A stretch of DNA of 40,000 nucleotides from Vibrio cortegadensis. GTDB lineage: Bacteria; Pseudomonadota; Gammaproteobacteria; Enterobacterales; Vibrionaceae. Under the pieces are notes generated by a model. That model did no database searches. It was not told where the DNA came from and saw nothing but the letters and a program-made list of their open reading frames with translations. Shown here one piece after another: positions 19,512 to 38,845 of the stretch (the first letter of the stretch is position 1; each line of letters opens with the position of its first letter). Position numbers and translations under genes: made by a program. Where the stretch lies: the NCBI RefSeq assembly GCF_024347395.1, contig NZ_AP025472.1:1564465-1604464 (forward strand), written 5' to 3'.

Positions 19512-19539
19512 ATTTAACATAATACACATAATACGCACC
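19512..19539 (-). other. dif: dif-like XerC/XerD recombination site A (11-6-11)
   Basis: The minus strand reads GGTGCGTATTA-TGTGTA-TTATGTTAAAT. The XerD arm equals the Vibrio/E. coli-type TTATGTTAAAT arm as I remember it. The site lies exactly at the boundary between core genes and phage DNA. Confidence 0.8.
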
Positions 19540-20734: not shown

Positions 20735-20956
20735 ATGACTAGCCCTTATGCGAACGGTGAAATCTACTACGACAACGAACCTAACGTTGGTGTGAATGCC
20801 TATTTCTCATGGGGGCATCATTTCTTTGCGTGTATGTCTGACTTCCGCGCTCACGTTGAACTGTCTCAAGCTCCAAACAGCTATGAACTGATTGAAATCA
20901 CCGACGATAACTATCGTTCACTTTGTCGAATTGGAGTGTTTGCTCATGTCTGCTGA
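20735..20956 (+). CDS. Hypothetical small phage protein
   Basis: 73 aa. It overlaps the inferred Rep start by 11 nt, suggesting translational coupling. Confidence 0.45.
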   Translation: MTSPYANGEIYYDNEPNVGVNAYFSWGHHFFACMSDFRAHVELSQAPNSYELIEITDDNYRSLCRIGVFAHVC

Positions 20957-22106: not shown

Positions 22107-22121
22107 TCGGAGAAACACACT

Positions 22122-22499
22122 ATGAGTACAGCAACTGCCTTTTTCGTACATGGCATTAAACACACTATCTTCAAGAACTCGGGCAATGCATCGGCTTCCA
22201 TCTACGTTGGCCGCGCATTGAAAGACTTTTCAAACGACAACATGGAAATCAAAGCGGCGGGTTACTTTGACAGTATTGAAGAATTTGAAAAGAACCGCTT
22301 TAAACATTTGGCTATTGAGGAAGTTTACGCTGAGAAAGTGATTAACAGCCGCGCTTTCGTCCCTTATCAGCAATATGAATTACGCACTGCGCCTATGCCT
22401 GATAACCCAATGCAATCGCACGTTGTTGAGATTATTCCTGTTGATGCAGAAGTTAAAAAGCACTTCATGGAATCCATGAAACAAACACCAACTAAATAA
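22122..22499 (+). CDS. Putative ssDNA-binding protein (gene V analogue), assigned by position only
   Basis: 125-aa soluble protein directly after Rep, where inoviruses place their ssDNA-binding protein. No motif-level support. Confidence 0.35.
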   Translation: MSTATAFFVHGIKHTIFKNSGNASASIYVGRALKDFSNDNMEIKAAGYFDSIEEFEKNRFKHLAIEEVYAEKVINSRAFVPYQQYELRTAPMPDNPMQSHVVEIIPVDAEVKKHFMESMKQTPTK

Positions 22500-22520
22500 A
22501 ATTCACATTGGGAGCTAATT

Positions 22521-22742
22521 ATGATTTGTGCAAAGGTTGTTTCTAACACTCTTCAAGTTATTGATTTAGCTCCCGGTGAAGCTTGCCAATTCGTGACTCT
22601 GTTACAGCAGTCTGATTTTGCAAACCCTGAAGCGTTTCTTACAAAAGAGATTGTTTTTACTTTGCTTTCTGCGGCTGCTGGCGTTTATGGATTGGTTTTT
22701 GTGATTGATATATCACTTCGTCAACTTGGTTTTAGAGGATAA
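22521..22742 (+). CDS. Small hydrophobic virion or assembly protein
   Basis: 73 aa with a C-terminal TM (IVFTLLSAAAGVYGLVFVIDISL), directly upstream of the major coat gene. Confidence 0.4.
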   Translation: MICAKVVSNTLQVIDLAPGEACQFVTLLQQSDFANPEAFLTKEIVFTLLSAAAGVYGLVFVIDISLRQLGFRG

Positions 22743-22746
22743 AACT

Positions 22747-22944
22747 ATGAAAAAACTACTTGTAGGTGTTGCACTTACTGCCGTTGCATCAACTCCAGCT
22801 TTTGCGGCTATTGATGTTTCTGCTGCGACTACAGCTATCACTACTGATGGTACTGCGGCAGTTAGCTCAATCGGTCAGGCTTTAATCGGTCTAGCTGGTG
22901 TTGCTGTTGTCTTTAAATGGGCTAAAGGTTCAATTTTCGGTTAA
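22747..22944 (+). CDS. Major coat protein (pVIII-like)
   Basis: MKKLLVGVALTAVASTPAFA/AIDVS... has a signal peptide, an acidic/neutral N-terminus, a hydrophobic core (ALIGLAGVAVVF) and a basic C-terminus (KWAKGSIFG). A GAGGA RBS lies upstream and a strong terminator follows. Confidence 0.85.
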   Translation: MKKLLVGVALTAVASTPAFAAIDVSAATTAITTDGTAAVSSIGQALIGLAGVAVVFKWAKGSIFG

Positions 22945-22960
22945 ACCTTTATGTGAAATC

Positions 22961-22988
22961 GGGGGCTTCGGCTCCCTTTTTTTAGGAT
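22961..22988 (+). terminator. Intrinsic terminator after the major coat gene
   Basis: GGGGGC-TTCG-GCTCCC hairpin (UUCG tetraloop, one G-U pair) followed by TTTTTTT. Confidence 0.8.
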
Positions 22989-22994
22989 TTAATT

Positions 22995-23078
22995 ATGCCT
23001 CTTTATCTAACACCTCAAGACCTTATTTGGGGCTTCGTTCTTCTCCTCCTTTGGGATGCCTTTCGTCGTTTATTTTAA
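22995..23078 (+). CDS. 27-aa hydrophobic peptide (pVII/pIX-like minor coat candidate; not in the ORF track)
   Basis: My translation is MPLYLTPQDLIWGFVLLLLWDAFRRLF. It is preceded by the same 13-nt GGATTTAATTATG initiation region as the pIII-like gene. Confidence 0.4.
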   Translation: MPLYLTPQDLIWGFVLLLLWDAFRRLF

Positions 23079-23090
23079 TTGGATTTAATT

Positions 23091-24578
23091 ATGAGTATTA
23101 AACAAAGCATTACTTTTTTATTTTTATTCTTGGGTGTTTCGTTTAATGCTTCGGCATATTTTGAAAATTATAAGGGTGAAAAGTTTGATTCTTTAGATAC
23201 GGCCTTAACATCATATTTAAATTCTTGTGAGGCTAATGTTTATACCGGGCGGGCTTCTTATATTAAATTCATTGATGGCAGGGTTTCTTCTTCAACTTCT
23301 CTTTACTTAAGGTATTACACTTATACAGATTCAAATTGTTCCAATCTTTATACTGGGGCTAACAATTGGACAACTATTTCTTTCACAAATAATGAATGTC
23401 CTGTTGGTGAAACGTTCAATCAAACTACTGGCGAGTGTGAATCACCTCCTGTATGTACAGATGATCAAGTTTTAGATCCAAACACTGGTGAGTGTGCAGA
23501 GATTCCCTTTTGCAAACGTCAATCTACTTTAGAAGCTATTTTTTCTGAGGAACAAGCTTGTGCGGCTTCAAAAGGTATTTTTAATCATAGCTGTGATGAA
23601 TTCCTTGATAAGTTAGATATGAAATGTACACAGCCTACTGAGTGTGTCATTGGTATGCCAAACTATCCTGATTGTTTGGGTGATTTAAACCCTACAGACC
23701 CACTTACACCGCCTGACGATTTTAATCCTGACCCTTCGAACCCTTCTACTCCTGCGCCTCCATCATTTGATAAAGATGAACCCGATTCAGTTACGCCAGA
23801 TGACACCACTGATAAGGCTGTATTAACGGCTTTACAAAATTTGAATCGTGATAATAACAAAGCTTTTACAGCATTAAATACAGATTTGAATACTGGCTTT
23901 ACCTCGTTAGATAACAAACTTAAAACACTGAATAAATCCAATGATGCAATTGGTAAAGCTATCAAAGAGCAATCACAACAAGATGTTGCCATTCATAACG
24001 CTCAAACCTTATTAATGACTCAACAAACTGGTGCCATTATGAATGGTACTACACAGGTAGTTCAGGGGCTTAATACTCAAACAACACAGCTAAAAGGTTC
24101 TCTTGACGGTGTTGCTCAAGCTATTGGCAATTTACCGTCACAACTAAATGGTGATGTTACTAGTCAAGGTTGTTCTTCTTTTAATTGTACTGGTAGTGCT
24201 CCCAGTTGTTTTCTAGCTAAAGAACGCTGGAGAGTTAATTGTGATGAATTAAAGAATGAAGAATCTGCAACTGAGCAAGGTGCTTTGTTGACTGATACTT
24301 TTCAGGCGTTAACTGAATCAGCTACTGATGAACATGGTGCTTATACCAGTGTATTTACTGATGCCAATGGTTCTGTTGATGAAATGCTTGATGCTTATAC
24401 GTCTGATAATGGTTTCAGCTTTTCTTCTGGTTGTCCTTCACCTCGCACGTATGATTTAAAAATTGCGGTTTGGTCAATTGATTACACTCCTTTTTGTACA
24501 CTAGCTCTCGTATTTCGTGGGCTTCTTTTAGCTTCCGCCTCAATAGCTTCTTTTTTAATGGTAGCTAAATTCATGTAA
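23091..24578 (+). CDS. Minor coat / host-adsorption protein (pIII-like)
   Basis: It has a signal peptide (MSIKQSITFLFLFLGVSFNASA), a Cys-rich N-terminal region, a Pro/Asp-rich linker (DPLTPPDDFNPDPSNPSTPAPPSFD) and a C-terminal membrane anchor. This is the standard pIII architecture and position. Confidence 0.7.
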   Translation: MSIKQSITFLFLFLGVSFNASAYFENYKGEKFDSLDTALTSYLNSCEANVYTGRASYIKFIDGRVSSSTSLYLRYYTYTDSNCSNLYTGANNWTTISFTNNECPVGETFNQTTGECESPPVCTDDQVLDPNTGECAEIPFCKRQSTLEAIFSEEQACAASKGIFNHSCDEFLDKLDMKCTQPTECVIGMPNYPDCLGDLNPTDPLTPPDDFNPDPSNPSTPAPPSFDKDEPDSVTPDDTTDKAVLTALQNLNRDNNKAFTALNTDLNTGFTSLDNKLKTLNKSNDAIGKAIKEQSQQDVAIHNAQTLLMTQQTGAIMNGTTQVVQGLNTQTTQLKGSLDGVAQAIGNLPSQLNGDVTSQGCSSFNCTGSAPSCFLAKERWRVNCDELKNEESATEQGALLTDTFQALTESATDEHGAYTSVFTDANGSVDEMLDAYTSDNGFSFSSGCPSPRTYDLKIAVWSIDYTPFCTLALVFRGLLLASASIASFLMVAKFM

Positions 24579-24603
24579 TAAAAATAACTCATAGGTGATT
24601 TTT

Positions 24604-24984
24604 ATGGGATTCGTATATGGTGCCCTTTCTCTTGTTTTTACTTGGTTACGCAGTGCAATGCCTTGGCTTCTCGGTGCTGTCGGTGCTTCATTTTCTAACT
24701 GGATTGTAAGCGCGGGGTTTGGTGTCGTTGTCTTCTCTGGCTTTAATATTTTGACTAGTCGCCTCATTGGTACGGCTGTCAACTCGCTGAACGGCCTTGG
24801 TGATATTGGTGGGTTTGGTGCTGATATTGTTATGCTTCTCGGCTATATGTGGCTAGATAAAGCTCTTAACCTTGTTATTTCAACGGGTGCTTTTTTAATG
24901 GCGATTAAAGGAGTTCGTCAAGGTATTGCTATGCGTCAAGCTTGGTGGAAACCAGGTCAGAAAACTGGAGGAATGGAAGGTTGA
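24604..24984 (+). CDS. pVI-like minor coat membrane protein
   Basis: ~126-aa very hydrophobic protein between the pIII-like and Zot-like genes (an alternative GTG start lies at 24595). Confidence 0.6.
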   Translation: MGFVYGALSLVFTWLRSAMPWLLGAVGASFSNWIVSAGFGVVVFSGFNILTSRLIGTAVNSLNGLGDIGGFGADIVMLLGYMWLDKALNLVISTGAFLMAIKGVRQGIAMRQAWWKPGQKTGGMEG

Positions 24985-26312
24985 TTTATTTAAGAACTGG
25001 ATTGCCAGGGGCGTCTAAAACTCTTAACTCTTTACGTGAAATTGTGCTTTCTCACGATTCGGGGCGTGAGTATTACTATACAAACATCAAATTACTTATG
25101 TTGGATATTGATGTGGCCTGCTCGTTTTCTGGTTGGTATTACGGCTGGTATTTTCCAAACTTAAAAGACAAGGCTAGTATTCGTAAATTATCTAAGATAA
25201 TGAAACCAATTCACGATGATGGTGAATTTATCACTCTAAATGATGTTCCTTGGCTTCGCTCTCAATATGATAGCCACAATCATTTTGAGACTTGGCTTTA
25301 CTGGGTTCGTCGTGTTTATCCTAAGAAGAAACTTGAGAAGCTAGAATCTATTCTTGATGCTGCTCCTGAAGATACACAAGATAAGTTTGATTTAGTTCGA
25401 CCTCTTAATCTTGATTTTAGAAACTTTCCAGACCCAAATGACTGGCCTACTTTACCTAAGCGTTCAGTCATTCTGGTTGATGAGGTTCAACAATTCTTTC
25501 CACCTCGTGGTGTTGGTTCTCGCGTACCAAAGGCTATAGCAGCCCTTGAGACTCATCGACATGGTGGTTATGACCTTCATTTTGTCACACAAGACAGAAC
25601 CCTTTGTGATGCTAATTTACGTAAATTAGTTGGTCGCCATGTTCATTATTTCAATGCTCTTGGTGGTAAAAAGGTAACTCGCAAAGAAGCACCTAAATGT
25701 TTTGATCCTAATGATTATCATCAGTCTCAAACTGCTTCCAAAAAGATGATTAGCCATGATAAAAAGTTCTATGGTGTTTATTGGTCTGCTGAAATACATA
25801 CCCATAAGTTCAAATTTCCATTCATGGGCTTTGTTGCTATTTTCTTTTTATGTTTGATCCTTTATTCCGCTTATTCTCTATCATCTCAATTATTTGGTGG
25901 TTCAGACTCCAGTTCTCCAGCTGCGCCAACTCAACCAACGCCAATACAAACTGATTCACCTGACATAACAGAAAATCCTGTTGCGGATTTTGTTGATGAG
26001 TTATTAACTGATGTTTATATATCAGGCTCTGTTGTAGAACAGTTCTCTGATGATGTTGTTTACCACTATACATTTGTACGAAGTTCTGACGGTGCTGTTT
26101 TCTATCCCGAAGCAATGGAATTAACACTTGATCCATTAACGCCATGTTTGGCGAATATTAGAATTGGTGAATTGATACGGCCTGTTACTTGTAATCCGTT
26201 TTATGTTCGTGATTCATGGAAAGAAGAAGATATTGAAGATTCAGAAGATGGACAAGCAATTGCCAGTGCTGAGAGTTCAGAGAAATACAAACCCAATATT
26301 AAACTATTCTAA
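24981..26312 (+). CDS. zot: Zot-like assembly ATPase (pI homologue)
   Basis: Likely TTG start at 24981 (TTGA overlap with the upstream stop, GGAGGAATGGAAGG upstream). Similar to CTX-phage Zot as I remember it: GLPGASKT versus GAPGSYKT, VILVDEVQQFFPPR versus FLFIDECGRIWPPR, and ETHRHGGYDLHFVTQ versus DMHRHHGWDICLTT. It has a central TM and a C-terminal periplasmic domain. Confidence 0.85.
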   Translation: MIYLRTGLPGASKTLNSLREIVLSHDSGREYYYTNIKLLMLDIDVACSFSGWYYGWYFPNLKDKASIRKLSKIMKPIHDDGEFITLNDVPWLRSQYDSHNHFETWLYWVRRVYPKKKLEKLESILDAAPEDTQDKFDLVRPLNLDFRNFPDPNDWPTLPKRSVILVDEVQQFFPPRGVGSRVPKAIAALETHRHGGYDLHFVTQDRTLCDANLRKLVGRHVHYFNALGGKKVTRKEAPKCFDPNDYHQSQTASKKMISHDKKFYGVYWSAEIHTHKFKFPFMGFVAIFFLCLILYSAYSLSSQLFGGSDSSSPAAPTQPTPIQTDSPDITENPVADFVDELLTDVYISGSVVEQFSDDVVYHYTFVRSSDGAVFYPEAMELTLDPLTPCLANIRIGELIRPVTCNPFYVRDSWKEEDIEDSEDGQAIASAESSEKYKPNIKLF

Positions 26313-27742: not shown

Positions 27743-28687
27743 ATGCGAGTTAGTTACTTTGGCTACCATTTGAACAATATAGACAATCAACACAAAACAT
27801 TGTTTGATATTCGCCCTTTTTTGCATTCTTTTTGTGCTTTAGATGCTGTTCAGTATAAAAATAATTTCACACACTCAGGCGAGCATTTGTATCTTTTTCC
27901 CGTTCATGGTGATGTATTTATGTTCGTAATGACACGTAGCAGTGACATTATCCGAAAAGTAAACACTAGAGAAATTACGGTAGAACAAATTCGTGATCTT
28001 TTAGGCGAAGATAACCAACTGGGGTTTGCTTCATATGTCCTTATCACTGAAAATTGCTTTGGATTCGGTTCAACTTTACTTGCACCTAAATCTGATGTTT
28101 TTATAGAATTTATTAACACAATCTTCATATCTCTTGGTATTGTTAATTGGAAATTAATTCCTTTTGCTTTAACTCATCAAGCTACACGTGCAGAAGCCAT
28201 GGAAATGTCGATTATAGGAACCACTGTGATCGAAATTTCGAAGGAAAATACTTTTGCAGAAGATTTCTTGAGACAATTAGGGATGACTACTGAGGAAACT
28301 CATAATTTAGAAGGCTTTGAATTGACATTTAAGCCTCGGTCAAGACAAAACATTAAGCCCGTTATTACAAACGTATTACAGCAGGTACCCGATGATGGCA
28401 TTACTAAACTGATTATCAAAGCTAAAAATGAAGTATCAGGGCACATGACCGATTTGTACCTAGTTAACTCTGGAATCTTACAAGATGATGTTAATAACTC
28501 TAGTGATCTGGCCATTGCCAGAAACATGGTAACTAAAAAAACCAACAACACCCTATTAACTGAAAAACTTGAGGAGTTTACACAAAATGAAGACCTCTCG
28601 GAAAGCACTATTGACGCTATTTCTCGTTATAATCACATCACTGCCTGGACCGATTTTGTATCTACTGTACAAACTGTTAGTGAATAA
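27743..28687 (+). CDS. rexA: RexA-like abortive-infection sensor protein
   Basis: 314 aa. Several blocks resemble lambda RexA as I remember it: HLYLFPVHGDVFMFVMT versus YLYIHKIDGKTFLFTKT, LGFASYVLITENCFGFG versus LGFPSFLFVEGDTIGFA, FELTFKPRSRQNIKPV versus LDIVIKPKFKRDIKKV, and IIKAKNEVSGHMTDLYL versus SLRAKDEAGDILTEHYL. Confidence 0.7.
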   Translation: MRVSYFGYHLNNIDNQHKTLFDIRPFLHSFCALDAVQYKNNFTHSGEHLYLFPVHGDVFMFVMTRSSDIIRKVNTREITVEQIRDLLGEDNQLGFASYVLITENCFGFGSTLLAPKSDVFIEFINTIFISLGIVNWKLIPFALTHQATRAEAMEMSIIGTTVIEISKENTFAEDFLRQLGMTTEETHNLEGFELTFKPRSRQNIKPVITNVLQQVPDDGITKLIIKAKNEVSGHMTDLYLVNSGILQDDVNNSSDLAIARNMVTKKTNNTLLTEKLEEFTQNEDLSESTIDAISRYNHITAWTDFVSTVQTVSE

Positions 28688-29051
28688 GGTATTAATTGAA
28701 CCTATTGTTTTAGTCGAACAGAAAACAAATATTGCCATTATATTAGCGACATTTGCGTTTACGATGATGGGTTTTTTAGCGGCTGTTATTACTATTTTCT
28801 TTTCGTTCGCTAAATCGAGAACGTTCAAGAAATTCAGCCGTGAAGGTCGTTTTGGCGTATTTTTTACTACTTATTATTACTGTATTATTTCACTCGCTCT
28901 AACCATGTGCTTTGCTTTGGTTACTTTAGGTAAAGGCACCTCTATATGGGCTATGCAAACAGCACTGATTACGACAGTAAATAGCTTATTTCAAATCTGC
29001 TTGATTACTTTTACTATCATTAATTTGAGTAAAAGGGCGATGAAGGAATAG
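28587..29051 (+). CDS. rexB: RexB-like four-TM membrane protein
   Basis: 154 aa from the ATG at 28587 (GAGGAG at 28571-28576). It has four hydrophobic helices, and the loop and tail resemble lambda RexB from memory (FAKSRTFKKFSREGRF versus IGSRTRRLAKIREYGY; FQICLITFTIINLSKR versus IHICILVFQLYNLTRE). It overlaps the rexA-like 3' end by 101 nt in another frame. Confidence 0.65.
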   Translation: MKTSRKALLTLFLVIITSLPGPILYLLYKLLVNKVLIEPIVLVEQKTNIAIILATFAFTMMGFLAAVITIFFSFAKSRTFKKFSREGRFGVFFTTYYYCIISLALTMCFALVTLGKGTSIWAMQTALITTVNSLFQICLITFTIINLSKRAMKE

Positions 29052-29079: not shown

Positions 29080-29451
29080 CTAACTGTTCATTATTAACGC
29101 AATACTACGAGCATATTTAAGCAACTTTGACATTGTTTTTACATCTAATTCTGCTTGAATTTCTAACAAAGCAATTCCAGTTAAAATCTCTTGTGGGGTC
29201 ACTAATTGGCCTGTCGGTAGTTCCAGTTTATCATTGCGCATGATGAATAGATTCCAATTATCTGATGGGGCAAGCTCTTTACCTTTATACATTTTCATTA
29301 ATCGCCGACACTCTGGCGGAATAGCTTTTCCTGCGTCCCAAAGCTTGACCGTCCTCACACTTTTAAAACATAGTTCAGCCGTCTTTTCTATACTAATTCC
29401 ACAAACTAATTCACGAAAAATATAATTTTTAGTCATTTCGTGGTACTTCAT
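29080..29451 (-). CDS. HTH + DUF3653-like protein (XafT-like candidate Xer activation factor), copy 1
   Basis: Likely ATG at 29451 (MKYHEMTKNY). It has an HTH-like segment TAELCFKSVRTVKLWDAGKAIPPECRRLM, then W..F......L.LPTGQLVTPQEI. It is a paralogue of the gene at 29779 and starts ~50 bp from dif-like site B. Confidence 0.6.
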   Translation of the reverse strand: MKYHEMTKNYIFRELVCGISIEKTAELCFKSVRTVKLWDAGKAIPPECRRLMKMYKGKELAPSDNWNLFIMRNDKLELPTGQLVTPQEILTGIALLEIQAELDVKTMSKLLKYARSIALIMNS

Positions 29452-29503
29452 TGATAACTCTCTCAAATGAGAAAGATATTATAAAAAGTGCGTATGCAAC
29501 TTG

Positions 29504-29532
29504 ATTTACCATAAGGGCGCATAATACGCACC
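29504..29532 (-). other. dif-like site B with a 7-nt spacer (attP/dif hybrid junction)
   Basis: The plus strand reads ATTTACCATAA-GGGCGCA-TAATACGCACC. The XerC arm is identical to site A. The XerD-type arm has one mismatch (C for A). The orientation matches site A. Confidence 0.7.
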
Positions 29533-29778
29533 GAGGGATTGTTTATTAACATTTGGTAAAACATTGATTAACGCATACATAAGTAATTGATACTTATGCC
29601 GAATTTATATTTAAACCCTATTTAATAACGTTTTGAAATACTTATGATTACTGGCGCTTGCTTTACGTAATCACAGCAAAAAGTCTCTTTTTCCACTGAG
29701 CGACATTTTGTCACGTGAATTGTTAAAAAATCATAAGAAAAAAATATTTCGTCAGTTATTTTATTTGTGAGGCAAATC

Positions 29779-30201
29779 ATGTTTTATGAGTCATTTAAAG
29801 TTCTGTTTTGGCGTGAGTTTACCTCTCACCGCCAAGGTGCTGAGTTTTTCCATGTGAAGATTGTCACAGTTCGACGTTGGCTAGACGGCAAAATCCCTGT
29901 CAATCCGATGGCTGAAAAACTCTTAATCATCAAATCACTTGGTTACTTGCCTAATGATATGCGTTGGCGTGGCTTTCGTATCTGTGAAAAACGTGCGGTG
30001 CTTCTTACCCCAACTGGACGCGAGTTCAGCCCTAAAGAATTAGAAAGCTTTGTGTTTTGGCGTGATGAACATCGACAATTGGTTGAGCAACATGGTCATG
30101 TGGATTACCCAAAGGTTTACCCTGCAAAAGAAAATGTGTTGCCGTTTCGTGGCGGTCGCCGAATGCAAGCCGCCCCGTGGATACCGACTAAATTTAAATA
30201 G
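29779..30201 (+). CDS. HTH + DUF3653-like protein (XafT-like), copy 2
   Basis: ATG at 29779 (MFYESFKVLFW, GAGG 6 nt upstream). It has AEFFHVKIVTVRRWLDGKIPVNPMAEKLLI, then MRWRGFRICEKRAVLLTPTGREFSPKELE. It is divergent from copy 1 across site B. Confidence 0.6.
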   Translation: MFYESFKVLFWREFTSHRQGAEFFHVKIVTVRRWLDGKIPVNPMAEKLLIIKSLGYLPNDMRWRGFRICEKRAVLLTPTGREFSPKELESFVFWRDEHRQLVEQHGHVDYPKVYPAKENVLPFRGGRRMQAAPWIPTKFK

Positions 30202-30238: not shown

Positions 30239-31216
30239 TCAGAAAGGAATATCATCATCAAAATCCGAAGAAGGTGGCGGTGGCGGCACTTGTACTGTTC
30301 GCTTTTCAATGGTAATAAACGCAGAATTCCAATTTTCAGGCGTGTAAACTTTAAGCGATTTATTCTCGTCAAAAATCTCTTCTGATATGGTTAACTCAAA
30401 TGAGTTATTGTACCAAGACAAATCGCTTCCAAAAGGAAATTCATACTCTTTATAGCCATATGTTTTCAAAATTTCACCAAGTTCTTGAATATTTTGAAAA
30501 TAAACCCGATGACCTATTCCTAGCTTAGTTCTCAACTCACTAAATGCTGGGTGGCTGTTCATCAGGATATTTTGAATTGCGTCACTTCCTCTATTTTTCT
30601 CTTCGCTTAAAAAAGTAACCAACGTTTTTAAAGTAGCTGAGGTTCTATTTATCTCATCAATTAAATTAACTTCTTTTCGTCGAGAGCTCTCACTCAAAAG
30701 GCTCTGAAAAAGTCCTGCCCACTGCTCTTTCAAATGATTAGTGATATCAACTACAGATTCAAATGCTTGTATTTGATTATTGTTAGGAAGTGAATGTATC
30801 TCATCGAGGAATTGAAAAATTCTATTATCATCTACTGATGCATACTTGATGCTGTCATTATCTTTATTTACTTTATATGTTTGATATTCAGCGTATACCG
30901 TTTTTTCAATAAAAATATAAAGCTGCTTTCCTTTTTTAACAGCCGTAGTTAACTCCACATTTGATACGGAGTGACTGCTATTCCCATGTTGAGATTGGGA
31001 GCCAAATCGACCGCCAATGACACCAACGACAATATCGCAAATTTCAATTTCTTTATAGCAATACTCTTCTAAACGTTTTTCTGAACCATAAGGAATATTG
31101 CCTTTTTCATTCAAAACCGGGTCATACCCTTGCTCTTTAATGAATCGCTCTAAATCATTTCTTATATATTTCAAGTCATAATAAGTCGAGCTTACAAAAA
31201 CACGGGGCTTTGCCAT
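30239..31216 (-). CDS. DUF4062 (TIR/deoxyribosyltransferase-like) N-terminal domain protein with an SSB-type C-terminal tail
   Basis: Likely start MAKPRVFVSSTYYDLKYIRNDLERFI (ATG at 31216; the ORF is open to 31252). The pattern VFVSST..DL...R..L......GY.PV..E.......E.C..EI..CD..VGVIG.R.G...S....E...A...GK matches DUF4062 as I remember it. The C-terminus verified from DNA is TVQVPPPPPSSDFDDDIPF*. Confidence 0.7.
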   Translation of the reverse strand: MAKPRVFVSSTYYDLKYIRNDLERFIKEQGYDPVLNEKGNIPYGSEKRLEEYCYKEIEICDIVVGVIGGRFGSQSQHGNSSHSVSNVELTTAVKKGKQLYIFIEKTVYAEYQTYKVNKDNDSIKYASVDDNRIFQFLDEIHSLPNNNQIQAFESVVDITNHLKEQWAGLFQSLLSESSRRKEVNLIDEINRTSATLKTLVTFLSEEKNRGSDAIQNILMNSHPAFSELRTKLGIGHRVYFQNIQELGEILKTYGYKEYEFPFGSDLSWYNNSFELTISEEIFDENKSLKVYTPENWNSAFITIEKRTVQVPPPPPSSDFDDDIPF

Positions 31217-31296
31217 GTTAAACCTATAATGTAAAAATTGATAATTAATCATATCACTTTAATCTCATACATAAGAATGATGACTCATACAAATAA

Positions 31297-31862: not shown

Positions 31863-32318
31863 CTATGCGAGTTTGACGCCTTGCATGGCATCGCTGAATG
31901 AGTAATGGCGACCCACTTCCATGATTGACATAGAGTGCAGCACTTTAGCCAATAGTTGGTCATCGTTTAGGTTGATGGATTCATTGACGCCAACACCGAC
32001 CTGTTTTGCTACGAACTGTGCGTAATTCTTCGTATCATTTTCTACTGGCGGTGCGAATCGGTTAATGATTTCGTTTAGATTGTCGAGTCCATGCGCCCGT
32101 TGATAGGTTCGCAAGGTTTTAGCGCCCGCCCGAAAGCCATATTTATGATGGGTATAGCTTTCAAATTCAGCATCACGGGAAAAGCTTGTTTCCCCTTGCC
32201 AATCGTTGCCTTTTCGAATGTTCAGCGGGTTATTGTTGCGAATTCCGCGGATGGTTTTTTTTGTCATATAGAGTGCAAAGCCCCCAAAGAAAATGAAGAT
32301 AATCAGATATAAACGCAT
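31863..32318 (-). CDS. Membrane-anchored phage protein with an RNNNPLNIR motif (putative muralytic/structural)
   Basis: 151 aa with an N-terminal TM and the motif GIRNNNPLNIRKGNDWQGE, which recurs in phage virion-associated or cell-wall-active proteins as I recall. Function not certain. Confidence 0.45.
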   Translation of the reverse strand: MRLYLIIFIFFGGFALYMTKKTIRGIRNNNPLNIRKGNDWQGETSFSRDAEFESYTHHKYGFRAGAKTLRTYQRAHGLDNLNEIINRFAPPVENDTKNYAQFVAKQVGVGVNESINLNDDQLLAKVLHSMSIMEVGRHYSFSDAMQGVKLA

Positions 32319-32320
32319 GG

Positions 32321-33340
32321 TTACACCTTGTAAAAATCAAACCCTGTCGGCATGGATGAATATTGAAAACTCATTTGCATGGCTTCAAGCTGTGCCGCCG
32401 ATGGGATATGGTCAACGGGATATTGGAACACCTTATAATCGCTGCCATGCTCGGTGATGGTTTGCACATGATAGCCAGATGCCAACATATGACGCGCCAT
32501 GCCAAACGGCGCATGAATTGCGTTGTGGTTAAAGCGAATCAAGCCCGCGCCCAAATCTTCAAAACCTATGGGTTTCATACAATCGGTCGCTTGGTAGTAT
32601 GGCGGCGCATGAGTAAATTCAAGCTTGGCAAGGTCGGCATCATCTGCCACAAACCCACACACGCCACGTTGAAGCCCAACAATGCCGGAATTTCTGACTT
32701 CCAAATACAACGCAACGTATGACGGTTGTTCAACCTGTACATTATTTTTCAGCGCACCAGAATCACAAGTCACAAAGCCGTCACCCGCAAAATCGGTGTG
32801 AATTTTTGAAGCTACTTTGTCGCCTAGCGTATGGCTGCCATCTTCACTCATGTGAATGAATCGAAAACCCACTTCCACCTCCGCGCCCGCCAATGCCATG
32901 ACATTGAACGCCGCACGAACAGACTTGCTTTCATCATTTTGTGGTGCGACCGGACGCAACACTTGATACATGGTGAAACCTTGGCACATGATTTGTGCAA
33001 AGTGCCGATTGGGTAACGTGTTGAGGTAATAATTACCCACACGGGACACGGGCGCGGTAATGCCCGCACCTGGTTGAACTTGAATTGCCCAACCATGCGC
33101 CAACATGAATTCAGCGCGCCCACCTAATGAGGTGACATTTAATGAAAATGGACGGTCAGAGCGTGATTGCGTGGTGACAAAACCACGGGCGCACATGCCA
33201 TGAAAATGACCGTTATCAATGAGGTTTGTGACTGCACCACCTGCCAACTTGCCCAACTCTTCGGCAAGGTATTCAATTTTGTTTCGGCTACTGCCATGCG
33301 GCAAATTTTTAAAAATTTCGTTCATGGGGTAAAGCTCCAT
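32321..33340 (-). CDS. Putative vertex/spike (receptor-binding) protein
   Basis: 339 aa, similar in size and position to the PM2 spike protein P1. There is no motif-level support. Confidence 0.35.
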   Translation of the reverse strand: MELYPMNEIFKNLPHGSSRNKIEYLAEELGKLAGGAVTNLIDNGHFHGMCARGFVTTQSRSDRPFSLNVTSLGGRAEFMLAHGWAIQVQPGAGITAPVSRVGNYYLNTLPNRHFAQIMCQGFTMYQVLRPVAPQNDESKSVRAAFNVMALAGAEVEVGFRFIHMSEDGSHTLGDKVASKIHTDFAGDGFVTCDSGALKNNVQVEQPSYVALYLEVRNSGIVGLQRGVCGFVADDADLAKLEFTHAPPYYQATDCMKPIGFEDLGAGLIRFNHNAIHAPFGMARHMLASGYHVQTITEHGSDYKVFQYPVDHIPSAAQLEAMQMSFQYSSMPTGFDFYKV

Positions 33341-33350
33341 AATTTGAGTG

Positions 33351-34010
33351 TTAAGACTCTAAGATAAATACGCGGTCAGTTGCAGCGCCCGTGAGTGCAA
33401 TGAGTGCGGAAGATTCAATATCAATCCGCTCACCCGCACTAAGTGGGTAAGCATTGTTAATCAACACATCACCTGTATTGGCGGTTGCTGCCTTGATGGT
33501 CACTTTGAAACGTGATGAATCAAAAGGAAGTTCAACGGGCAATGCTGAATCTTGTGCATTGATGCTTTTACTTCTCTTGAGTACCACAGGCGTTCGCTGT
33601 GAGACTTTAATCACTTGGTCGGGCGCAATTTCAACGGGCGGTAATGTTTCAAGGCTAACGGTTTGACCTGCTGCAATTTCCACCGCAGGAAGTGAATCAA
33701 TCGACGCGGTTAAGTGTTGGTTTTCTGCAATCACCATTGCGGGCATCACGCTTACTTCAAGCTGTTGCCCTTCCATTGGTGGCGTAAAATCTCCCACGCC
33801 ATGCTCAAACACCAAGCGACCAACGCCCGTGATGAAAATGCGCCCAAAGCGACTACCTGTGTTTTTATACAGTGATTTTTGCGTAAGCGTAAAAACCGCA
33901 CCTGTGGACTCAATTTCAATCTGAATTTTGCCCGTGGATAACTCCACAAACAGCCATTCAGAATCAAGCGTGACAGGGATTTTTTGTCCTTCAATAAGGT
34001 TCAATTCCAT
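33351..34010 (-). CDS. Putative structural protein
   Basis: 219 aa with a beta-rich composition. Its start overlaps the upstream stop by 1 nt. Confidence 0.35.
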   Translation of the reverse strand: MELNLIEGQKIPVTLDSEWLFVELSTGKIQIEIESTGAVFTLTQKSLYKNTGSRFGRIFITGVGRLVFEHGVGDFTPPMEGQQLEVSVMPAMVIAENQHLTASIDSLPAVEIAAGQTVSLETLPPVEIAPDQVIKVSQRTPVVLKRSKSINAQDSALPVELPFDSSRFKVTIKAATANTGDVLINNAYPLSAGERIDIESSALIALTGAATDRVFILES

Positions 34011-34426
34011 TACTTAACCGCCTTATAAGTGACAAAACCCAACACGGCAGCAACGAACATCATTAAGTACAAATTCATTGAATTTTGCTTACTTTGCCCG
34101 CCGTCCTTATTGAATTTGGCAAGCTCCATCATCGCGTTAATGTTTTTTGTGTTTTGCGTGGCTTGATTACCCGCAAGCCCTGCCATCATTTGCAAATTTT
34201 CACTGTTGCTTGAGCTGTATTCCTCCAACACACCGGAGGCAAAATCTGTGTTGATTTCGTGCATGTTTTCGGCGGCTTGAATTGCGCCGTGGTCGGTAGC
34301 GGTCACATTGATAGTGGAGTCATTGACTCCACTAATCGCCGTCCCTAAGTTGTCACCACTAATGGCATTTTGACCGCTAACGTTAGTGGTTTGGGTTTTG
34401 TTACTGGATTTGGATTTTCCACCCAT
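34010..34426 (-). CDS. C-terminally anchored virion membrane protein candidate
   Basis: 138 aa, Ser/Asn/Gly/Gln-rich, with C-terminal TM LYLMMFVAAVLGFVTY. Confidence 0.45.
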   Translation of the reverse strand: MGGKSKSSNKTQTTNVSGQNAISGDNLGTAISGVNDSTINVTATDHGAIQAAENMHEINTDFASGVLEEYSSSNSENLQMMAGLAGNQATQNTKNINAMMELAKFNKDGGQSKQNSMNLYLMMFVAAVLGFVTYKAVK

Positions 34427-34428
34427 GA

Positions 34429-34800
34429 TTACACCTTCATTTCCATGTGGGTTACGTCACCACATGCGTGTTCTTCGGTACTCAGGCGGCGACACAATCG
34501 CGCCACCAATGGAAAATAGGTTTCTGCTGAAATAGACGATAATCCCGCGCTTTTTACGTAGGCTTTCAACTCTCGCATTGCCGGAATAACGCCGCGTCCA
34601 GAAACGCCCCAAAGAAAGTAAGAATGACCGATAATCTCACCCGCCACCGTGACACGGTAACTATCATCAGATAACTCATAAAGGCTTACGCGCCCTGCGT
34701 TCACCTCATGTTTGAGTTTTTCAAATTCAGCCGGACAAGCTCGAAATGCTACTTTCAACCGCGCCAATGCGCGGGGACTATCAGAAACCAATTCAATCAT
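34429..34800 (-). CDS. Hypothetical phage protein
   Basis: 123-aa soluble protein with an ATGA overlap on the upstream gene. Confidence 0.4.
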   Translation of the reverse strand: MIELVSDSPRALARLKVAFRACPAEFEKLKHEVNAGRVSLYELSDDSYRVTVAGEIIGHSYFLWGVSGRGVIPAMRELKAYVKSAGLSSISAETYFPLVARLCRRLSTEEHACGDVTHMEMKV

Positions 34801-34991
34801 CTTTTAAGTGCCACCAAGGCAATCACTGCCACTATGCTCAATAACAGCCAAGGCTTTGCGCCTTTTGAGCCTCCCATACTAATCCCGCCCACGCTTTGCC
34901 CTGCGTTGGTGGTATTGGCGGCGGTCGATGGTCCCGCAGAACCACCCGTGAAACCGCCACCCCCTGTTAAACTGGTTAAACTGCCTAACAT
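34797..34991 (-). CDS. Gly-rich small membrane protein
   Basis: 64 aa with a Gly-rich N-terminus and C-terminal TM WLLLSIVAVIALVAL. It resembles the small internal-membrane proteins of PM2-type viruses. Confidence 0.45.
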   Translation of the reverse strand: MLGSLTSLTGGGGFTGGSAGPSTAANTTNAGQSVGGISMGGSKGAKPWLLLSIVAVIALVALKR

Positions 34992-35000
34992 TCGTCCCCC

Positions 35001-35135
35001 TTAAAAGAACTTGAGCATGGCAAGAATCGCCACCAATAGCGCCGCGAACCATAAGAGGTTTTTGGCGCCATCACTGAGACTAAACCCGACCCATACACCA
35101 GTAAGCGCAACCACCGGATAAACAATCAATGGCAT
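35001..35135 (-). CDS. 44-aa two-helix membrane peptide (not in the ORF track)
   Basis: My translation is MPLIVYPVVALTGVWVGFSLSDGAKNLLWFAALLVAILAMLKFF. It fills the gap between flanking genes exactly. Confidence 0.4.
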   Translation of the reverse strand: MPLIVYPVVALTGVWVGFSLSDGAKNLLWFAALLVAILAMLKFF

Positions 35136-35136
35136 G

Positions 35137-35478
35137 TTATTTCCCCTTCACTGCGAAATAGACCGCGCCCGCCAATACCAAGAACCCGCCACCAATGGCT
35201 AAATACATGCCGTAGTTATTCGGCGATTGGCGATAAACCACATCGCCATTAGGTTGTTGGTAATCGTTGCCGTCCCCACGGTGTGCGCTTGGGTTCGCTG
35301 AGTTAGATTGTTGCGCGTCTTCGTTGAGTTTGTTGGTGATAAGGTCGGGCGCAATGTCCCCGACTAAATCCACCGCACCACCAATGAGTTCACCGCCACT
35401 TTCTAAGATGCTTTCCCACCACGAACTTGACGAGGACTCGTTAAAAATATCCATATCGGTTTCCTTTGGTACTGGCAT
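35137..35478 (-). CDS. Small virion membrane protein candidate
   Basis: 113 aa with C-terminal TM MYLAIGGGFLVLAGAVYFAV. Confidence 0.45.
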   Translation of the reverse strand: MPVPKETDMDIFNESSSSSWWESILESGGELIGGAVDLVGDIAPDLITNKLNEDAQQSNSANPSAHRGDGNDYQQPNGDVVYRQSPNNYGMYLAIGGGFLVLAGAVYFAVKGK

Positions 35479-35486
35479 GACGCCCC

Positions 35487-36320
35487 TTACTTGGCTTGTG
35501 GTGAGATTTCGCCAACTTGCTCAATGGCTTCGATAATCACAGGCACGCTTCCCGCGCTTGCTTTCTCTAATTCAAATTGCAGTTGTTTAGCGGCATTGGT
35601 AGAAAGGCGACCTTCAACACCAAAACCAGTACGAACAAAATCAAGCGTGAACCATCCCGCGTTTTGCTCTAAACCCGCCACGGCAAGGTCAAAAGCGTTA
35701 TCTGCTTTAGATACGTTGATTTCTTCACGCTCGTCACGCATGACACGAACACGGTCAATCGTGTCGTCTTTGAAGTGAATACGTTTGATTGAAAGGAACG
35801 GTGAACGCTCGGCAAAATCGAACGGAGTGCGACCGGACGCCGCCGCGTACCACGTTAATGAATACAGACGCGGCAAATAAATGCGGCGAGATTGGGCGGC
35901 GGTTGTGTGGGCGCGTGCTTTGATTGATGGCGCGGCTTGGTCGGCTTTGGCTTTAAGCTGAATGTAAAGCATCCAGATTTCACCCTGTAGCGTCACCAGT
36001 TCACCCGTGCGAACACCCGCCTTTGTGCGAAGCGTTAGATCAGCAAATGGGATGATGTAGCGCCCTTTTTGCGTGAACTGTTTGCGGTGCTCTTGAAAGT
36101 CCACCAAATCTTGACCTGTCACACCAATGATTTCTTTACCGTTTAACTTGAGCGTGACGCGCTCAATGTCTGCTGGGTCAAGAATGTCAGTGACTAATTC
36201 AATGTTTTGGTAAGTGGGACCCGTTACCACGCGCAATGTTGCCTGATTACCCCAGTTAACACCTTCAACCGGGTCTAACTCACGTGGGCGTGGGTTAAAT
36301 GGTGTGTTCATCATTTCCAT
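35487..36320 (-). CDS. Major capsid protein, PM2 P2-like (double jelly-roll lineage)
   Basis: ~277 aa from MEMMNTPF. Blocks resemble PM2 P2 as I remember it: PTYQNIELVTDILDPADIERVTLKLNGKEI versus QTYEVIDLRYSGVTPSQIKNVRVELDGRLL, FTLDFVRTGF versus YTIDFMLEGD, and a similar C-terminal LQFELEK...IIEAIEQVG. The size matches. Confidence 0.65.
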   Translation of the reverse strand: MEMMNTPFNPRPRELDPVEGVNWGNQATLRVVTGPTYQNIELVTDILDPADIERVTLKLNGKEIIGVTGQDLVDFQEHRKQFTQKGRYIIPFADLTLRTKAGVRTGELVTLQGEIWMLYIQLKAKADQAAPSIKARAHTTAAQSRRIYLPRLYSLTWYAAASGRTPFDFAERSPFLSIKRIHFKDDTIDRVRVMRDEREEINVSKADNAFDLAVAGLEQNAGWFTLDFVRTGFGVEGRLSTNAAKQLQFELEKASAGSVPVIIEAIEQVGEISPQAK

Positions 36321-36457
36321 TAGAACCACCCCTTATCACCATTAATCGTGTCTTTTACAGCGCCTAACGCTGACACGTTGTTAATAAGGGCAAGAATGCC
36401 AACCGTAAGCAATACCGTAGTGCCTAGGGGAATAAGCGTGCTTTTATTTAGTTTCAT
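36320..36457 (-). CDS. 45-aa membrane peptide, first gene of the structural operon (not in the ORF track)
   Basis: My translation is MKLNKSTLIPLGTTVLLTVGILALINNVSALGAVKDTINGDKGWF. It has a GGAAAGG RBS and a TAATG overlap with the capsid gene start. Confidence 0.4.
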   Translation of the reverse strand: MKLNKSTLIPLGTTVLLTVGILALINNVSALGAVKDTINGDKGWF

Positions 36458-36541
36458 AAACCTTTCCAGTTTGTGAGTGAATAAATCATTCAATAGAGAG
36501 GCTTTAAGGTTGGCGATTTTGAGGAAATTAAACAGAGGGAG

Positions 36542-36576
36542 TAACCTAATAGGTTAAGGCTTTAACCTATTAGGTA
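36542..36576. promoter_or_regulatory. Twin palindromic operator-like sites
   Basis: TAACCTAATAGGTTA (36542-36556; AACCTA-A-TAGGTT is a perfect dyad) and TAACCTATTAGGTA (36563-36576). The centres are 21 bp apart. They lie in the 200-bp gap between the structural operon and a divergent small ORF. Confidence 0.55.
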
Positions 36577-36659
36577 AAGAGGATAGAAACGAACGATTGC
36601 TTTTATATTTCTTGTTTGCGATATACAATACGCAAAACCATAAAACAGCGTAGATATGC

Positions 36660-36944
36660 ATGTCTGACCTAAAGTTTTCTCCCACTAAATTGTTTAACCT
36701 AGCATCGAAAAAAATTAATGATTACCTTGATGAAGCACTTGAGAATGAAAGAATTAAGCAAGAAAACCATCCACAGCGGCTTGAAGAAATAAGAATTGAA
36801 GGCGAATTTCGACGCAAGCAGCAAGCAGAACGACACAAACAAAAAATAGCAAAAATACTCAGAGAGACTCCTCAGGTTTCCCCAGAAGACCAAGCCATAT
36901 ATGATGACTTTGTTCGAAAATTGGAAAAGGAAGGGAAAATGTAG
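36660..36944 (+). CDS. Charged coiled-coil hypothetical protein on the opposite strand (regulator or moron)
   Basis: 94 aa, Lys/Glu/Arg-rich and AT-rich compared with the surrounding prophage. It is the only plus-strand gene inside the minus-strand train. Confidence 0.4.
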   Translation: MSDLKFSPTKLFNLASKKINDYLDEALENERIKQENHPQRLEEIRIEGEFRRKQQAERHKQKIAKILRETPQVSPEDQAIYDDFVRKLEKEGKM

Positions 36945-36973
36945 GCGACAAGCTATTTTATCGCCTAATAACA

Positions 36974-37699
36974 CTAGTTAAGACAGTTGATTTCGCCGCG
37001 TTTAACATTACCAATGCCATCACAAAACATCAGATATTGGGCAATGCCTTGGTTAGTTTTGGCGGTTTTAAGGCTTGCCAGTTCGTTGACATCATGGCTT
37101 TTTTGGTCGGCGATGTAGTTTGCATCTGCCATGCTTGCCAAGCCACCCACCCACCATGTAGGTGATTGACTGCTGACGGTTTTCGGCACTTCCTGCGTGC
37201 GTTGGAATGTGGAATGGATAATCAAACCAAATTGACGCCCACCGCGCCACAGTTCGCCCGATTTGCCTTTTAGCTTGCCCGTGGTTTCAACTGTACTGGC
37301 TAACTCTTCAATCCCAACGTAAAGCGGCGGTTTCTGTCCATCGCCACAACTCCAGACAATCGCCGCAAAGGTTTCAAGGTTCACGCCGTTTGCTTCCTTA
37401 ACCAACGCCAGTTTAAACCCTGTTTTCTTACTGCGTGCCGCCACCAAAGCGCGGGCGAACGGGGCAAACTCAGTAAACATTTTGACTTGCTGCCCTTGGA
37501 ACTTCTTACCCGCATAATTTTGGTATGGGTCAAAAAATACCGCTTGGCTTTTCTTGGGTATCAAGCCCAATTTTTTCACGGCGGTGGTCTTCCCGCTGCC
37601 CGTAGTACCGATATAAACGCAATGCTCGGCATCCAGTGCCGGATTGCTGTTAATCGGCATAGGCAATCTAAGCGGCGGCTGTTTCGCTTTCTTTGCCAT
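36974..37699 (-). CDS. P-loop genome-packaging ATPase (PM2 P9 / FtsK-HerA-type)
   Basis: 241 aa with Walker A GTTGSGKTT and a Walker B-like LYVGIEELA. Size and position are typical of membrane-containing tailless phages. Confidence 0.65.
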   Translation of the reverse strand: MAKKAKQPPLRLPMPINSNPALDAEHCVYIGTTGSGKTTAVKKLGLIPKKSQAVFFDPYQNYAGKKFQGQQVKMFTEFAPFARALVAARSKKTGFKLALVKEANGVNLETFAAIVWSCGDGQKPPLYVGIEELASTVETTGKLKGKSGELWRGGRQFGLIIHSTFQRTQEVPKTVSSQSPTWWVGGLASMADANYIADQKSHDVNELASLKTAKTNQGIAQYLMFCDGIGNVKRGEINCLN

Positions 37700-38180
37700 C
37701 GTTCGCCGCCTCCGCTTGCGCTTTCATCAGTTGTTCAGTTTGCAGACGCTTAATGATGTTAATGCTTGAGTAACCAAGCCCCACCGTTGCCACGCCAAAC
37801 ATGATCTCTTCTTTGTAAGCATCAAACCATTTCAGCCACGTTAAACCGTACTTACCAATCAAGGGCGCGCACGCTTCAAGGAATTTAGCGCGGGCGGTTT
37901 CATCAAAGGCAAAATCCACACCGGACGCACCCGAAATGTATTGCTCAGACATGAACAGACCCATATCAACAAAGCCCACGGCGGCGCTTGGGTCGAGTGC
38001 TTCGGGTTGGTCTTCTAATTCCGTTTCGGGTTCATCTGGCGCGCCACTTTCCACCGTATCGATGGCGTCTAAATCGGCAAACGCTTGGTTAAAATCTTGT
38101 GCCATTGGTGCGGTTTGGTTGTCGGCTTGATGTTCGGTTTCAAGCTCGGTGTTTTCTGGTTTATCCATGTGCGGGTACAT
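37668..38180 (-). CDS. Acidic hypothetical protein
   Basis: 170 aa with a strongly acidic N-terminal half (DAIDTVESGAPDEPETELEDQPEALD). It overlaps both neighbours. Confidence 0.4.
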   Translation of the reverse strand: MYPHMDKPENTELETEHQADNQTAPMAQDFNQAFADLDAIDTVESGAPDEPETELEDQPEALDPSAAVGFVDMGLFMSEQYISGASGVDFAFDETARAKFLEACAPLIGKYGLTWLKWFDAYKEEIMFGVATVGLGYSSINIIKRLQTEQLMKAQAEAANDGKESETAAA

Positions 38181-38780: not shown

Positions 38781-38845
38781 GTGTTCATTTTCCTTTTTTC
38801 TAGCCAATGAGTGATGTTTTCCCCTGCAAGCAACCCCAAACGGGA

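Follow-up and report, generated by a model that had tools for sequence, protein, structure and literature searches.

Which mobile elements enter or leave the dif site is decided by Xer activation factors, and in Vibrio cholerae these factors shape the order in which toxin-carrying phages are acquired. The elements concerned are Xer-exploiting integrative mobile elements (IMEXs), and two classes of their attP sites matter here. In the VGJ class the attP is 29 bp long and undergoes an XerC-only exchange that is resolved by replication; in the TLC class the XerC arm and the centre are like those of dif, the XerD arm is poor and the reaction is XerD-first (PMC4246890). XafT, the factor of the satellite phage TLCphi, activates XerD (PMC6744903), and for it to drive recombination it is sufficient that the first or the fifth innermost base of the XerD arm matches dif (Miele et al., PMC9226527). 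XafV, which is ORF136 of VGJphi, raises the integration of an attP-VGJ plasmid 10,000-fold and that of CTXphi 10-fold; it does not permit the XerD-first integration of TLCphi, and its action seems limited to XerC-initiated reactions (10.64898/2026.06.12.731946). Here we analyse a stretch of 40,000 nucleotides from Vibrio cortegadensis ("the window" below), in which two related genes, of 123 and 140 codons, lie back to back across a dif-like site that separates a filamentous prophage from a corticovirus-like one.

Arrays of this type have been described before. The use of XerCD by phages of the NO16 type was proposed in 2023, and proteins of the family DUF3653 were reported in 2019 beside dif in many gamma- and beta-proteobacteria (PMC6744903). 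An analysis of 688 Vibrio genomes from December 2025 describes variable cargo regions that separate zot from xafT and p15 from the lysis genes, finds ~29% identity between the two regulators, and counts pairs of an inovirus and a double jelly-roll (DJR) unit in 27 of the 63 two-unit arrays in Vibrio, or 43% (PMC12715192). The best explanation of the present locus as a whole, with the mechanisms that we propose for it included, is a stack of a DJR prophage and a VGJ-type inovirus, each with its own Xer helper beside its attP, and we give this reading a probability of about 70%. The locus is thus of an already known kind, and what it needs is a mechanistic correction: the inovirus gene is of the XafV type and probably not one for an XerD activator.

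Two related genes across a hybrid att site

The window is the dif region of V. cortegadensis chromosome 1, and the locus is a two-unit IMEX array that reads, in order, DJR prophage, hybrid site B, VGJ-type inovirus and functional dif (site A). Both elements are bounded by dif-like sites at the chromosomal dif, and the Pfam annotation of the inovirus and of the DJR element contains no integrase domain, so that both presumably rely on the XerC and XerD of the host. A contig of a second assembly (GCA_030410015.1, L006 below) has 0 mismatches to the window over 11,391 bp and also extends beyond it. The sites and the two genes are the following.

19512..19539, minus strand: site A, the canonical dif, GGTGCGTATTA-TGTGTA-TTATGTTAAAT, located by pattern searches and the published Vibrio dif motif
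29504..29532, minus strand: site B, a 29-bp dif-like hybrid att site, GGTGCGTATTA-TGCGCCC-TTATGGTAAAT, in agreement with the published motif of Vibrio att sites
~2 kb past the window end: site C, AGTGCGTATTA-TGTATA-CAGTGGTAATT, which adjoins an 87-aa p16-like repressor gene and bounds the DJR element
29080..29451, minus strand: 123-aa XafV orthologue (helix-turn-helix (HTH), then a beta-hairpin and two helices at the C-terminus); the inovirus ends with this gene on the XerD-arm side of its attP
29779..30201, plus strand: 140-aa DUF3653 protein of the P15 type (HTH, beta-hairpin, helix, disordered tail); with it the DJR prophage ends on the XerC-arm side of its attP

Site A is both the present functional dif and the inovirus attR. 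Its XerD-arm side is flanked by host genes, with a sensor kinase that ends at 19311, and host genes follow again beyond site C, where they include matP. Read from its arms and centre, site B is a hybrid, with an XerC arm, GGTGCGTATTA, from the attP of the DJR phage and a 7-bp centre, TGCGCCC, and XerD arm, TTATGGTAAAT, from an inovirus attP of the VGJ class; for comparison, the attP of VGJphi is ACTTCGCATTA-TGTCGGC-TTATGGTAAAA. Another XerC-arm-like sequence, AGTGCGTATGC, lies inverted beside site B at 29487-29497. It was rejected as a second att site because it has no properly oriented XerD arm, and the block ATGCAA(C/T) beside it, which is kept in most of the related inovirus flanks examined, was counted against it as well.

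An earlier reading of the window, made from its letters alone and called the sequence-only reading below, had proposed two divergent paralogues that start ~50 and ~250 bp from site B and point away from it. Both open reading frames (ORFs) are where it put them, the peptide segments it quoted are present, the similarity of the two products goes beyond chance, and the start codons lie 52 nt (XafV gene, XerD-arm side of the inovirus attP) and 246 nt (P15 gene, XerC-arm side of the DJR attP) from the site, with both genes pointing away. The minus-strand ORF as listed runs from 29080 to 29466 and gives 128 aa from a TTG or 123 aa from the ATG at 29451; the plus-strand ORF runs from 29767 to 30201 and gives 144 aa from a GTG or 140 aa from the ATG at 29779. 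Because alignments of homologues show an invariant Met at both ATG codons, 123 and 140 aa are the real lengths.

The 123-aa protein aligns with VGJphi ORF136 over its full length, without gaps in 120 residues and with 54% identity (E 2e-47), and by this measure it is an orthologue of XafV. An unannotated ORF of Vf33 is 67% identical to it. The genomic context is also that of the XafV family, since the gene adjoins a 29-bp attP of the VGJ class with a 7-bp centre on an integrase-less inovirus, and in 18 distinct loci, in VGJphi and in Vf33 the start of the XafV-type gene again lies ~50 nt from the att site.

The 140-aa protein, by its homology and its position, is the P15 of dif-integrating corticovirus-like vibriophages. 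It matches the whole of the Pfam model for DUF3653 (PF12375, model positions 1-66) with 73.6 bits against a gathering threshold of 22.4 bits (E 1.4e-20), and its close homologues in Vibrio, Photobacterium, Enterovibrio and Salinivibrio all carry DUF3653. Its identity to gp7 of NO16, a temperate corticovirus-like phage, is 65%, and that to gp a/P15 of PM2, which RefSeq also calls a DUF3653 protein, is 27% (E 3e-5). Its position is terminal: the p16-like gene abuts site C at one end of the prophage, and P15 abuts site B at the other.

The same back-to-back arrangement recurs elsewhere. We took 55 loci with a P15 homologue from IMG/VR, of which 49 have upstream sequence. In 48 of these 49 an XerC-arm motif lies upstream of P15 in the same orientation, at 149-290 bp (mode 247), and hybrid sites equivalent to site B are likewise present in 48; a divergent homologue of the 123-aa protein, ~330 bp upstream of P15, completes the pair in 40. 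The inovirus-derived halves of the hybrid sites have 7-bp centres and near-canonical XerD arms. The DJR half can be read from other sites. NO16 and two other loci (L050 and L052) hold an intact DJR attP between p16 and p15, and the DJR attL or attP in 11 of the 12 related loci examined, in site C and in NO16 is 28 bp long, with a dif-like XerC arm and a 6-bp centre. The XerD arms of these same sites have 4-5 mismatches, and the fifth innermost G is always kept.

The two proteins are, by sequence and predicted structure, true remote homologues with a common layout of HTH, beta-hairpin and helix. In BLASTP they share 27% identity over 91 residues (E 5e-4), and when profiles of the XafV-type and P15 families are aligned with hhalign the probability is 93-95% (E 3e-7 to 2e-8) over ~85 columns, which span both the HTH and the W..F/TPxG segments. 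The AlphaFold2 models (predicted local distance difference test score 78.9 for the 123-aa and 73.8 for the 140-aa protein) agree in the order of their elements, with four helices followed by a beta-hairpin and a helix. Structure searches add no more than an XRE-type HTH and an unsolved hairpin domain. The matches of Foldseek in the PDB and BFVD were limited to the HTH part or to truncated homologues, and a sequence search of the PDB gave nothing for the P15 family and, for the XafV family, a marginal HTH match to HigA-2 (E 0.41).

Both proteins can also be placed relative to XafT, which we represented by 10 family members that pass the cut-off of NCBIfam NF040522 (the VC1465/XafT family), not by the TLCphi XafT sequence itself. 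NF040522 scores the 123-aa protein at 40.0 bits (E 3e-10) and the 140-aa protein at 42.7 bits (E 5e-11), and a hidden Markov model (HMM) built from the 10 bona fide members matches them with E 2e-12 and 3e-13, respectively. A joint profile run against 1.84 billion representatives yielded 894 clusters; all 10 of the scanned matches of 186-203 aa pass NF040522 with 77-100 bits, which shows that this model discriminates. In hhalign the XafT (VC1465) family aligns with the P15 family at a probability of 98.8% (E 1.4e-16) and with the XafV-type family at 98.1% (E 1.4e-13), and by these scores each of the two is closer to XafT than to the other. At the level of sequence profiles, XafT, the XafV-type family and P15 are one superfamily, and neither window protein belongs to the XafT subfamily. 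Neither the window nor the adjoining 8.8 kb yielded a third family member.

Database names follow these relationships poorly. The NCBI protein identical to the 123-aa product is called "regulator [Vibrio cortegadensis]", the orthologue in Vf33/Vf12 carries no annotation, and the PHROG to which the XafV-type family belongs, phrog_1668, bears the name "tail assembly protein", which looks unsupported. The P15 family is often named "S-adenosylhomocysteine hydrolase" in databases, and nothing in the analysis supports that name. The assignments made here are therefore of use for annotating proteins that now appear as "regulator", "phage protein", "tail assembly protein" or "S-adenosylhomocysteine hydrolase".

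How the two proteins may act at dif

In the reading that we prefer, the DJR prophage would have integrated first, between site C and site B, and the VGJ-type inovirus would then have integrated into the dif regenerated by the DJR event, between sites B and A. Because the two helper genes sit on opposite sides of their attP sites, sequential integration of this kind would leave them back to back across site B. A strict order of DJR first and inovirus second was rejected, since in one related locus (L057) the DJR unit integrated after the inovirus.

The XafV-type protein, like XafV of VGJphi, would make the poor 29-bp attP, with its 7-bp centre, recombine with dif by an XerC-catalysed exchange, and replication would then resolve the pseudo-Holliday junction. 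We infer this mechanism for the 123-aa gene because the inovirus in the window has exactly the VGJ class of att site. The sequence-only reading had given each element its own factor, next to its att site, that activates XerD without FtsK. Each element does carry its own copy, but for the 123-aa gene that function is probably wrong: the protein is probably not an XerD activator, because its orthologue XafV boosts XerC-initiated integration and not the XerD-first integration of TLCphi.

For P15 the proposal is less certain. The protein would act like XafT of TLCphi, stabilising the synapse and activating XerD at a DJR attP with a dif-like XerC arm, a 6-bp dif-like centre and a degenerate XerD arm, and it may double as a regulator of early genes, as reported for P15 of PM2. 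Att class and profile similarity favour this XafT-like role, because the DJR attP is TLC-like, the fifth innermost G of its XerD arm is kept and the profile similarity of P15 to XafT is the higher one. The full claim goes further: P15 would be a true XerD activator of the XafT type, a capsid-forming dsDNA corticovirus would integrate XerD-first in the manner of TLCphi, and the two members of the pair might promote each other. We regard this as possible but doubtful. If it holds, a single hybrid att site is flanked by two different Xer helpers, a XafV for the XerC pathway and a P15 for the XerD pathway. In V. cholerae both XafT and XafV cross-stimulate other IMEXs, and for this reason each of the two residents, DJR prophage and inovirus, might favour the integration of the other, their co-excision or the remodelling of the array; such mutual promotion, if real, could help explain why the pairing of DJR phages with inoviruses is common in Vibrio.

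Several points weigh against the preferred reading of the locus. The homologous P15 of PM2 has been described as a transcriptional repressor that is dispensable for infection (PMC1950889, PMC9502842), and Xanthomonas inoviruses have a DUF3653 protein, PSB15, that binds the packaging signal and without which integration still takes place (bioRxiv 2024.03.19.585677). The centre of site C, TGTATA, is compatible with either an XerD-first or an XerC-first reaction, which sequence alone does not separate. The family assignments proposed in the sequence-only reading also hold in part. Membership of DUF3653 stands for the 140-aa protein; the 123-aa protein gives no match to PF12375 at E<=10, and among 16 of its relatives DUF3653 matches are weak and present in 6 (best E 6.4e-4), so that the relationship is visible only at the level of profiles. 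The likeness to XafT is borne out as remote homology with an HTH and a DUF3653-like hairpin, but neither the 123-aa nor the 140-aa protein reaches the curated 70-bit cut-off of NF040522.

Among the other explanations, the one that survives best concerns P15 only and has it aid an XerC-first integration that is resolved by replication, as XafV does, instead of an XerD-first one. XerC-first pathways are the ones used by most IMEXs. Moreover, the TGTATA centre of site C is also that of the intact DJR attP in NO16, L050 and L052, as an XerC-only exchange predicts for an attL, and this centre differs from that of the host dif (TGTGTA) at one position. The attP itself points the other way, since it resembles the 28-bp TLC class and not the 29-bp VGJ class, and so do the profiles, in which the P15 family scores higher against XafT (E 1.4e-16) than against the XafV family (E 3e-7). 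In addition, some DJR attL sites share the XerD arm and differ in the centre (TATGTG vs TGTATA), which is easier to obtain with a crossover on the XerD side. On balance we think an XerC-first role of P15 unlikely, though not implausible.

A more general alternative is that both proteins are ordinary phage transcription regulators, repressors of early genes or of the switch between lysis and lysogeny, which lie next to attP as part of a lysogeny module and have no direct role in Xer recombination. Both do have an N-terminal HTH of the XRE/Cro type, to which the fold matches in the PDB and BFVD are confined, and such a function is what the names suggest: "regulator" at NCBI for the 123-aa protein, "putative regulator" for VGJphi ORF136, "a transcriptional regulator" for P15/XafT in PMC12715192. 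P15 and P16 of PM2 have moreover been described as transcriptional repressors of early operons (PMC1950889). However, the 10,000-fold increase in attP-VGJ integration was obtained with VGJphi ORF136 alone, expressed from an arabinose promoter in a phage-free reporter strain (10.64898/2026.06.12.731946), and XafT activates XerD in vitro independently of DNA binding (PMC6744903). The core conserved across the three families also reaches past the HTH and takes in the DUF3653 hairpin. The proteins may plausibly be regulators and act in Xer recombination as well, since the two roles are not mutually exclusive, but regulation as the whole function we consider quite improbable. It is more improbable still that the inovirus-borne protein acts in virion assembly like PSB15 from the filamentous phages of Xanthomonas and Stenotrophomonas, whose N-terminal DUF3653, with LTG, WAGFxF and TPE motifs comparable to the W..F and (L/T)PTG..(T/S)P.E motifs of the window proteins, binds packaging-signal hairpin DNA and whose loss leaves integration unaffected (bioRxiv 2024.03.19.585677), because the 123-aa protein has the fused HTH-DUF3653 architecture of XafT and XafV, its close orthologue has been shown to act in integration, and its paralogue belongs to a DJR phage, whose dsDNA is packaged by an ATPase and carries no packaging signal of the inovirus type.

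Flanking elements of the genes and cargo of the two prophages

Two features next to the helper genes may bear on their expression.

29458..29475, minus strand: leader hairpin of the XafV gene, over the Shine-Dalgarno position and 6 nt upstream of the ATG
29533..29778, plus strand: spacer of 246 bp between the DJR XerC arm and the P15 start

The leader hairpin was compared in 18 loci together with VGJphi (L004) and Vf33 (L001). The stems vary between loci and the pairing is kept; those seen are CTTTCTC/GAGAGAG, GTCCCTC/GAGGGAC, AACTTCC/GGGAGTT and AACCTCT/AGAGGTT. Sequences were folded one by one, since RNAalifold, run on a MAFFT alignment of the leader in which the hairpin was misaligned, yielded a weak consensus. 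The individual folds range from -4.8 to -14.6 kcal/mol, with z between -3.3 and -6.5 in 7 of 8 and -0.8 in one (L017). The hairpin may provide translational control of the Xer helper, for which it is a candidate.

The spacer probably holds the putative promoter or operators of P15. In 39 related loci and NO16 it is 239-290 bp long (mode 247, mostly 246-250), and it is 52-63% identical to that of the window, which is below the identity of the coding sequence (60-76%). A scan of 29000-30300 for sigma-70 promoters found no more matches than in shuffled sequences, and no promoter is claimed. At the other end of the gene, the predicted disordered tail of P15 contains the motif PFRGGRR (residues 122-128; window 30142-30162, plus strand). 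It is invariant in an alignment of 20 sequences; an alignment of 46 P15 sequences shows no variation at RGG and R128, and conservation of at least 90% at P122, F123 and R127. Neither the XafV-type nor the VC1465-type family has the motif, which we regard as a candidate partner-binding peptide.

At site C, outside the window, a 64-bp stretch of L006 (6743-6806, about window 41975-42038) is 90.6% identical to window 19523-19585. On the L006 side it comprises the XerC arm of site C and ~47 bp of outer flank, and on the window side the XerC arm of site A and the 3' end of the rstR-like gene described below. Judged by this likeness, the stretch looks like what remains of an older inovirus, one that was present at dif before the arrival of the DJR prophage.

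The inovirus between sites A and B contains, besides its Xer helper, the following.

19514..19891, minus strand: rstR-like repressor with an HTH (HTH_19) and DUF3693 (Pfam, E 2.8e-13), the terminal gene at the dif end
20892..26312, plus strand: inovirus core of Rep_trans (RstA-like), DUF1293 (like a single-stranded DNA-binding protein), a 499-aa pIII-like protein, DUF2523 (pVI-like) and Zot/pI, assigned with Pfam
27743..29051, plus strand: RexA-like (314 aa) and RexB-like (160 aa) pair (Pfam RexA, E 1.7e-58; PADLOC RexA, E 3e-62, and RexB, E 1e-23)

Homologues of the rstR-like gene sit at the far inovirus end in related loci. In the window this ORF extends into site A (19514-19539), which contains its stop codon; in the prophage state, att-site DNA therefore encodes part of the repressor's C-terminus. 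The RexA-like and RexB-like ORFs overlap as listed (28569-28687). By similarity and position the pair is a lambda-type abortive-infection module, which a filamentous prophage carries as cargo in its variable region, flanked by zot and the Xaf gene. The same variable region holds a 200-aa ORF (26886-27488, minus strand) with a weak PHROG match to a Mu Gam-like end-protection protein (E 1.8e-4) and no match in Pfam or PADLOC. Downstream of zot, the non-coding stretch 26611-26711 is 81-88% identical to unannotated regions of two Vibrio inoviruses (PQ189344 and OP628074), and may serve as a conserved cis element, for example an origin or a packaging signal.

On the DJR side of site B, the genes in the window are these.

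30239..31252, minus strand: DUF4062 protein (Pfam, E 1.4e-18), 337 aa as listed and 325 aa in the public record
31863..40000, minus strand: body of the corticovirus-like (DJR) prophage, with an endolysin-like gene, a PM2-type major capsid gene, other structural genes and a Phage_GPA replication protein

Lying where the DJR prophage is variable, with P15 on one side and the lysis genes on the other, the DUF4062 gene is by its position a candidate defence or cargo gene; PADLOC gave no match for its product. The prophage itself was recognized by the PHROG endolysin, by Pfam P2_N/P2_C and Phage_GPA on the same contig, and by similarity to Vinavirales elements. Its 606-aa Phage_GPA replication protein runs off the window. 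Each unit of the array thus also carries defence or cargo: RexAB on the inovirus and the DUF4062 protein on the DJR prophage.

Comparison with known systems

The sequence-only reading expected a factor on each of two such elements to widen the known host range of the strategy. That expectation falls away, because both the arrangement and the two gene families had already been described in 2025-2026. What the locus offers is a clean, fully delimited V. cortegadensis example of an array type that the published survey found to be common in Vibrio, and a natural pair of attP sites with their cognate factors, one of the 29-bp VGJ class and one of a 28-bp TLC-like class. Our analysis adds the placement of P15 nearer to XafT at the profile level and the contrast of att classes within one array, and, as side observations, the leader hairpin, the PFRGGRR tail and the older inovirus remnant.

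Five known systems come closest to the two genes. The gamma domain of FtsK is a functional analogue, and of XafT-type factors only, in that a protein contact switches on Xer catalysis; it has no sequence homology to XafT (PMC6744903) and belongs to a host protein tied to cell division. PSB15 shares a DUF3653 hairpin with W..F and TP.E-like motifs and comes from a dif-integrating inovirus. However, DUF3653 stands at its N-terminus, a separate ORF encodes the HTH, and it is the packaging signal that PSB15 binds, integration proceeding in its absence.

The DJR phages of the "dif type" (PMC12715192), with gp7 of NO16 and P15 of PM2 as the homologues of our 140-aa protein, have the same layout as the DJR unit described here: an attP between p16 and p15 and variable cargo between p15 and the lysis genes. 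PM2 differs in that its P15 is documented as a transcriptional repressor and that the phage is known only as a lytic one.

XafT (VC1465) of the satellite phage TLCphi shares with both window families a core of HTH and DUF3653 (hhalign 98-99%), a gene directly beside the attP of its element and an element that depends on host XerCD. Besides the scores below the NF040522 cut-off, there are three differences. The VC1465 members examined have ~186-203 aa and a long low-complexity C-terminus, whereas the window proteins have 123 and 140 aa; the XerD arm of the TLC attP has 8 mismatches, compared with 4-5 in the DJR sites; and the XafV-type protein is probably unable to activate XerD-first reactions.

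Another close system is that of XafV itself (ORF136 of VGJphi, the same protein in f237, and the ORF of the Vpf121 region in VfO3K6/Vf33). Here the host is V. cortegadensis, the centre of the site is TGCGCCC instead of the TGTCGGC of VGJphi, RexAB is carried as cargo, and the system is known from its sequence. The two correspond in the following: the 54% identity extends over the full length of the protein, the gene lies ~30-50 nt from a 29-bp attP with a 7-bp centre and the XerD arm TTATGGTAAA, and the carrier is an integrase-less inovirus of the Zot/RstA type.

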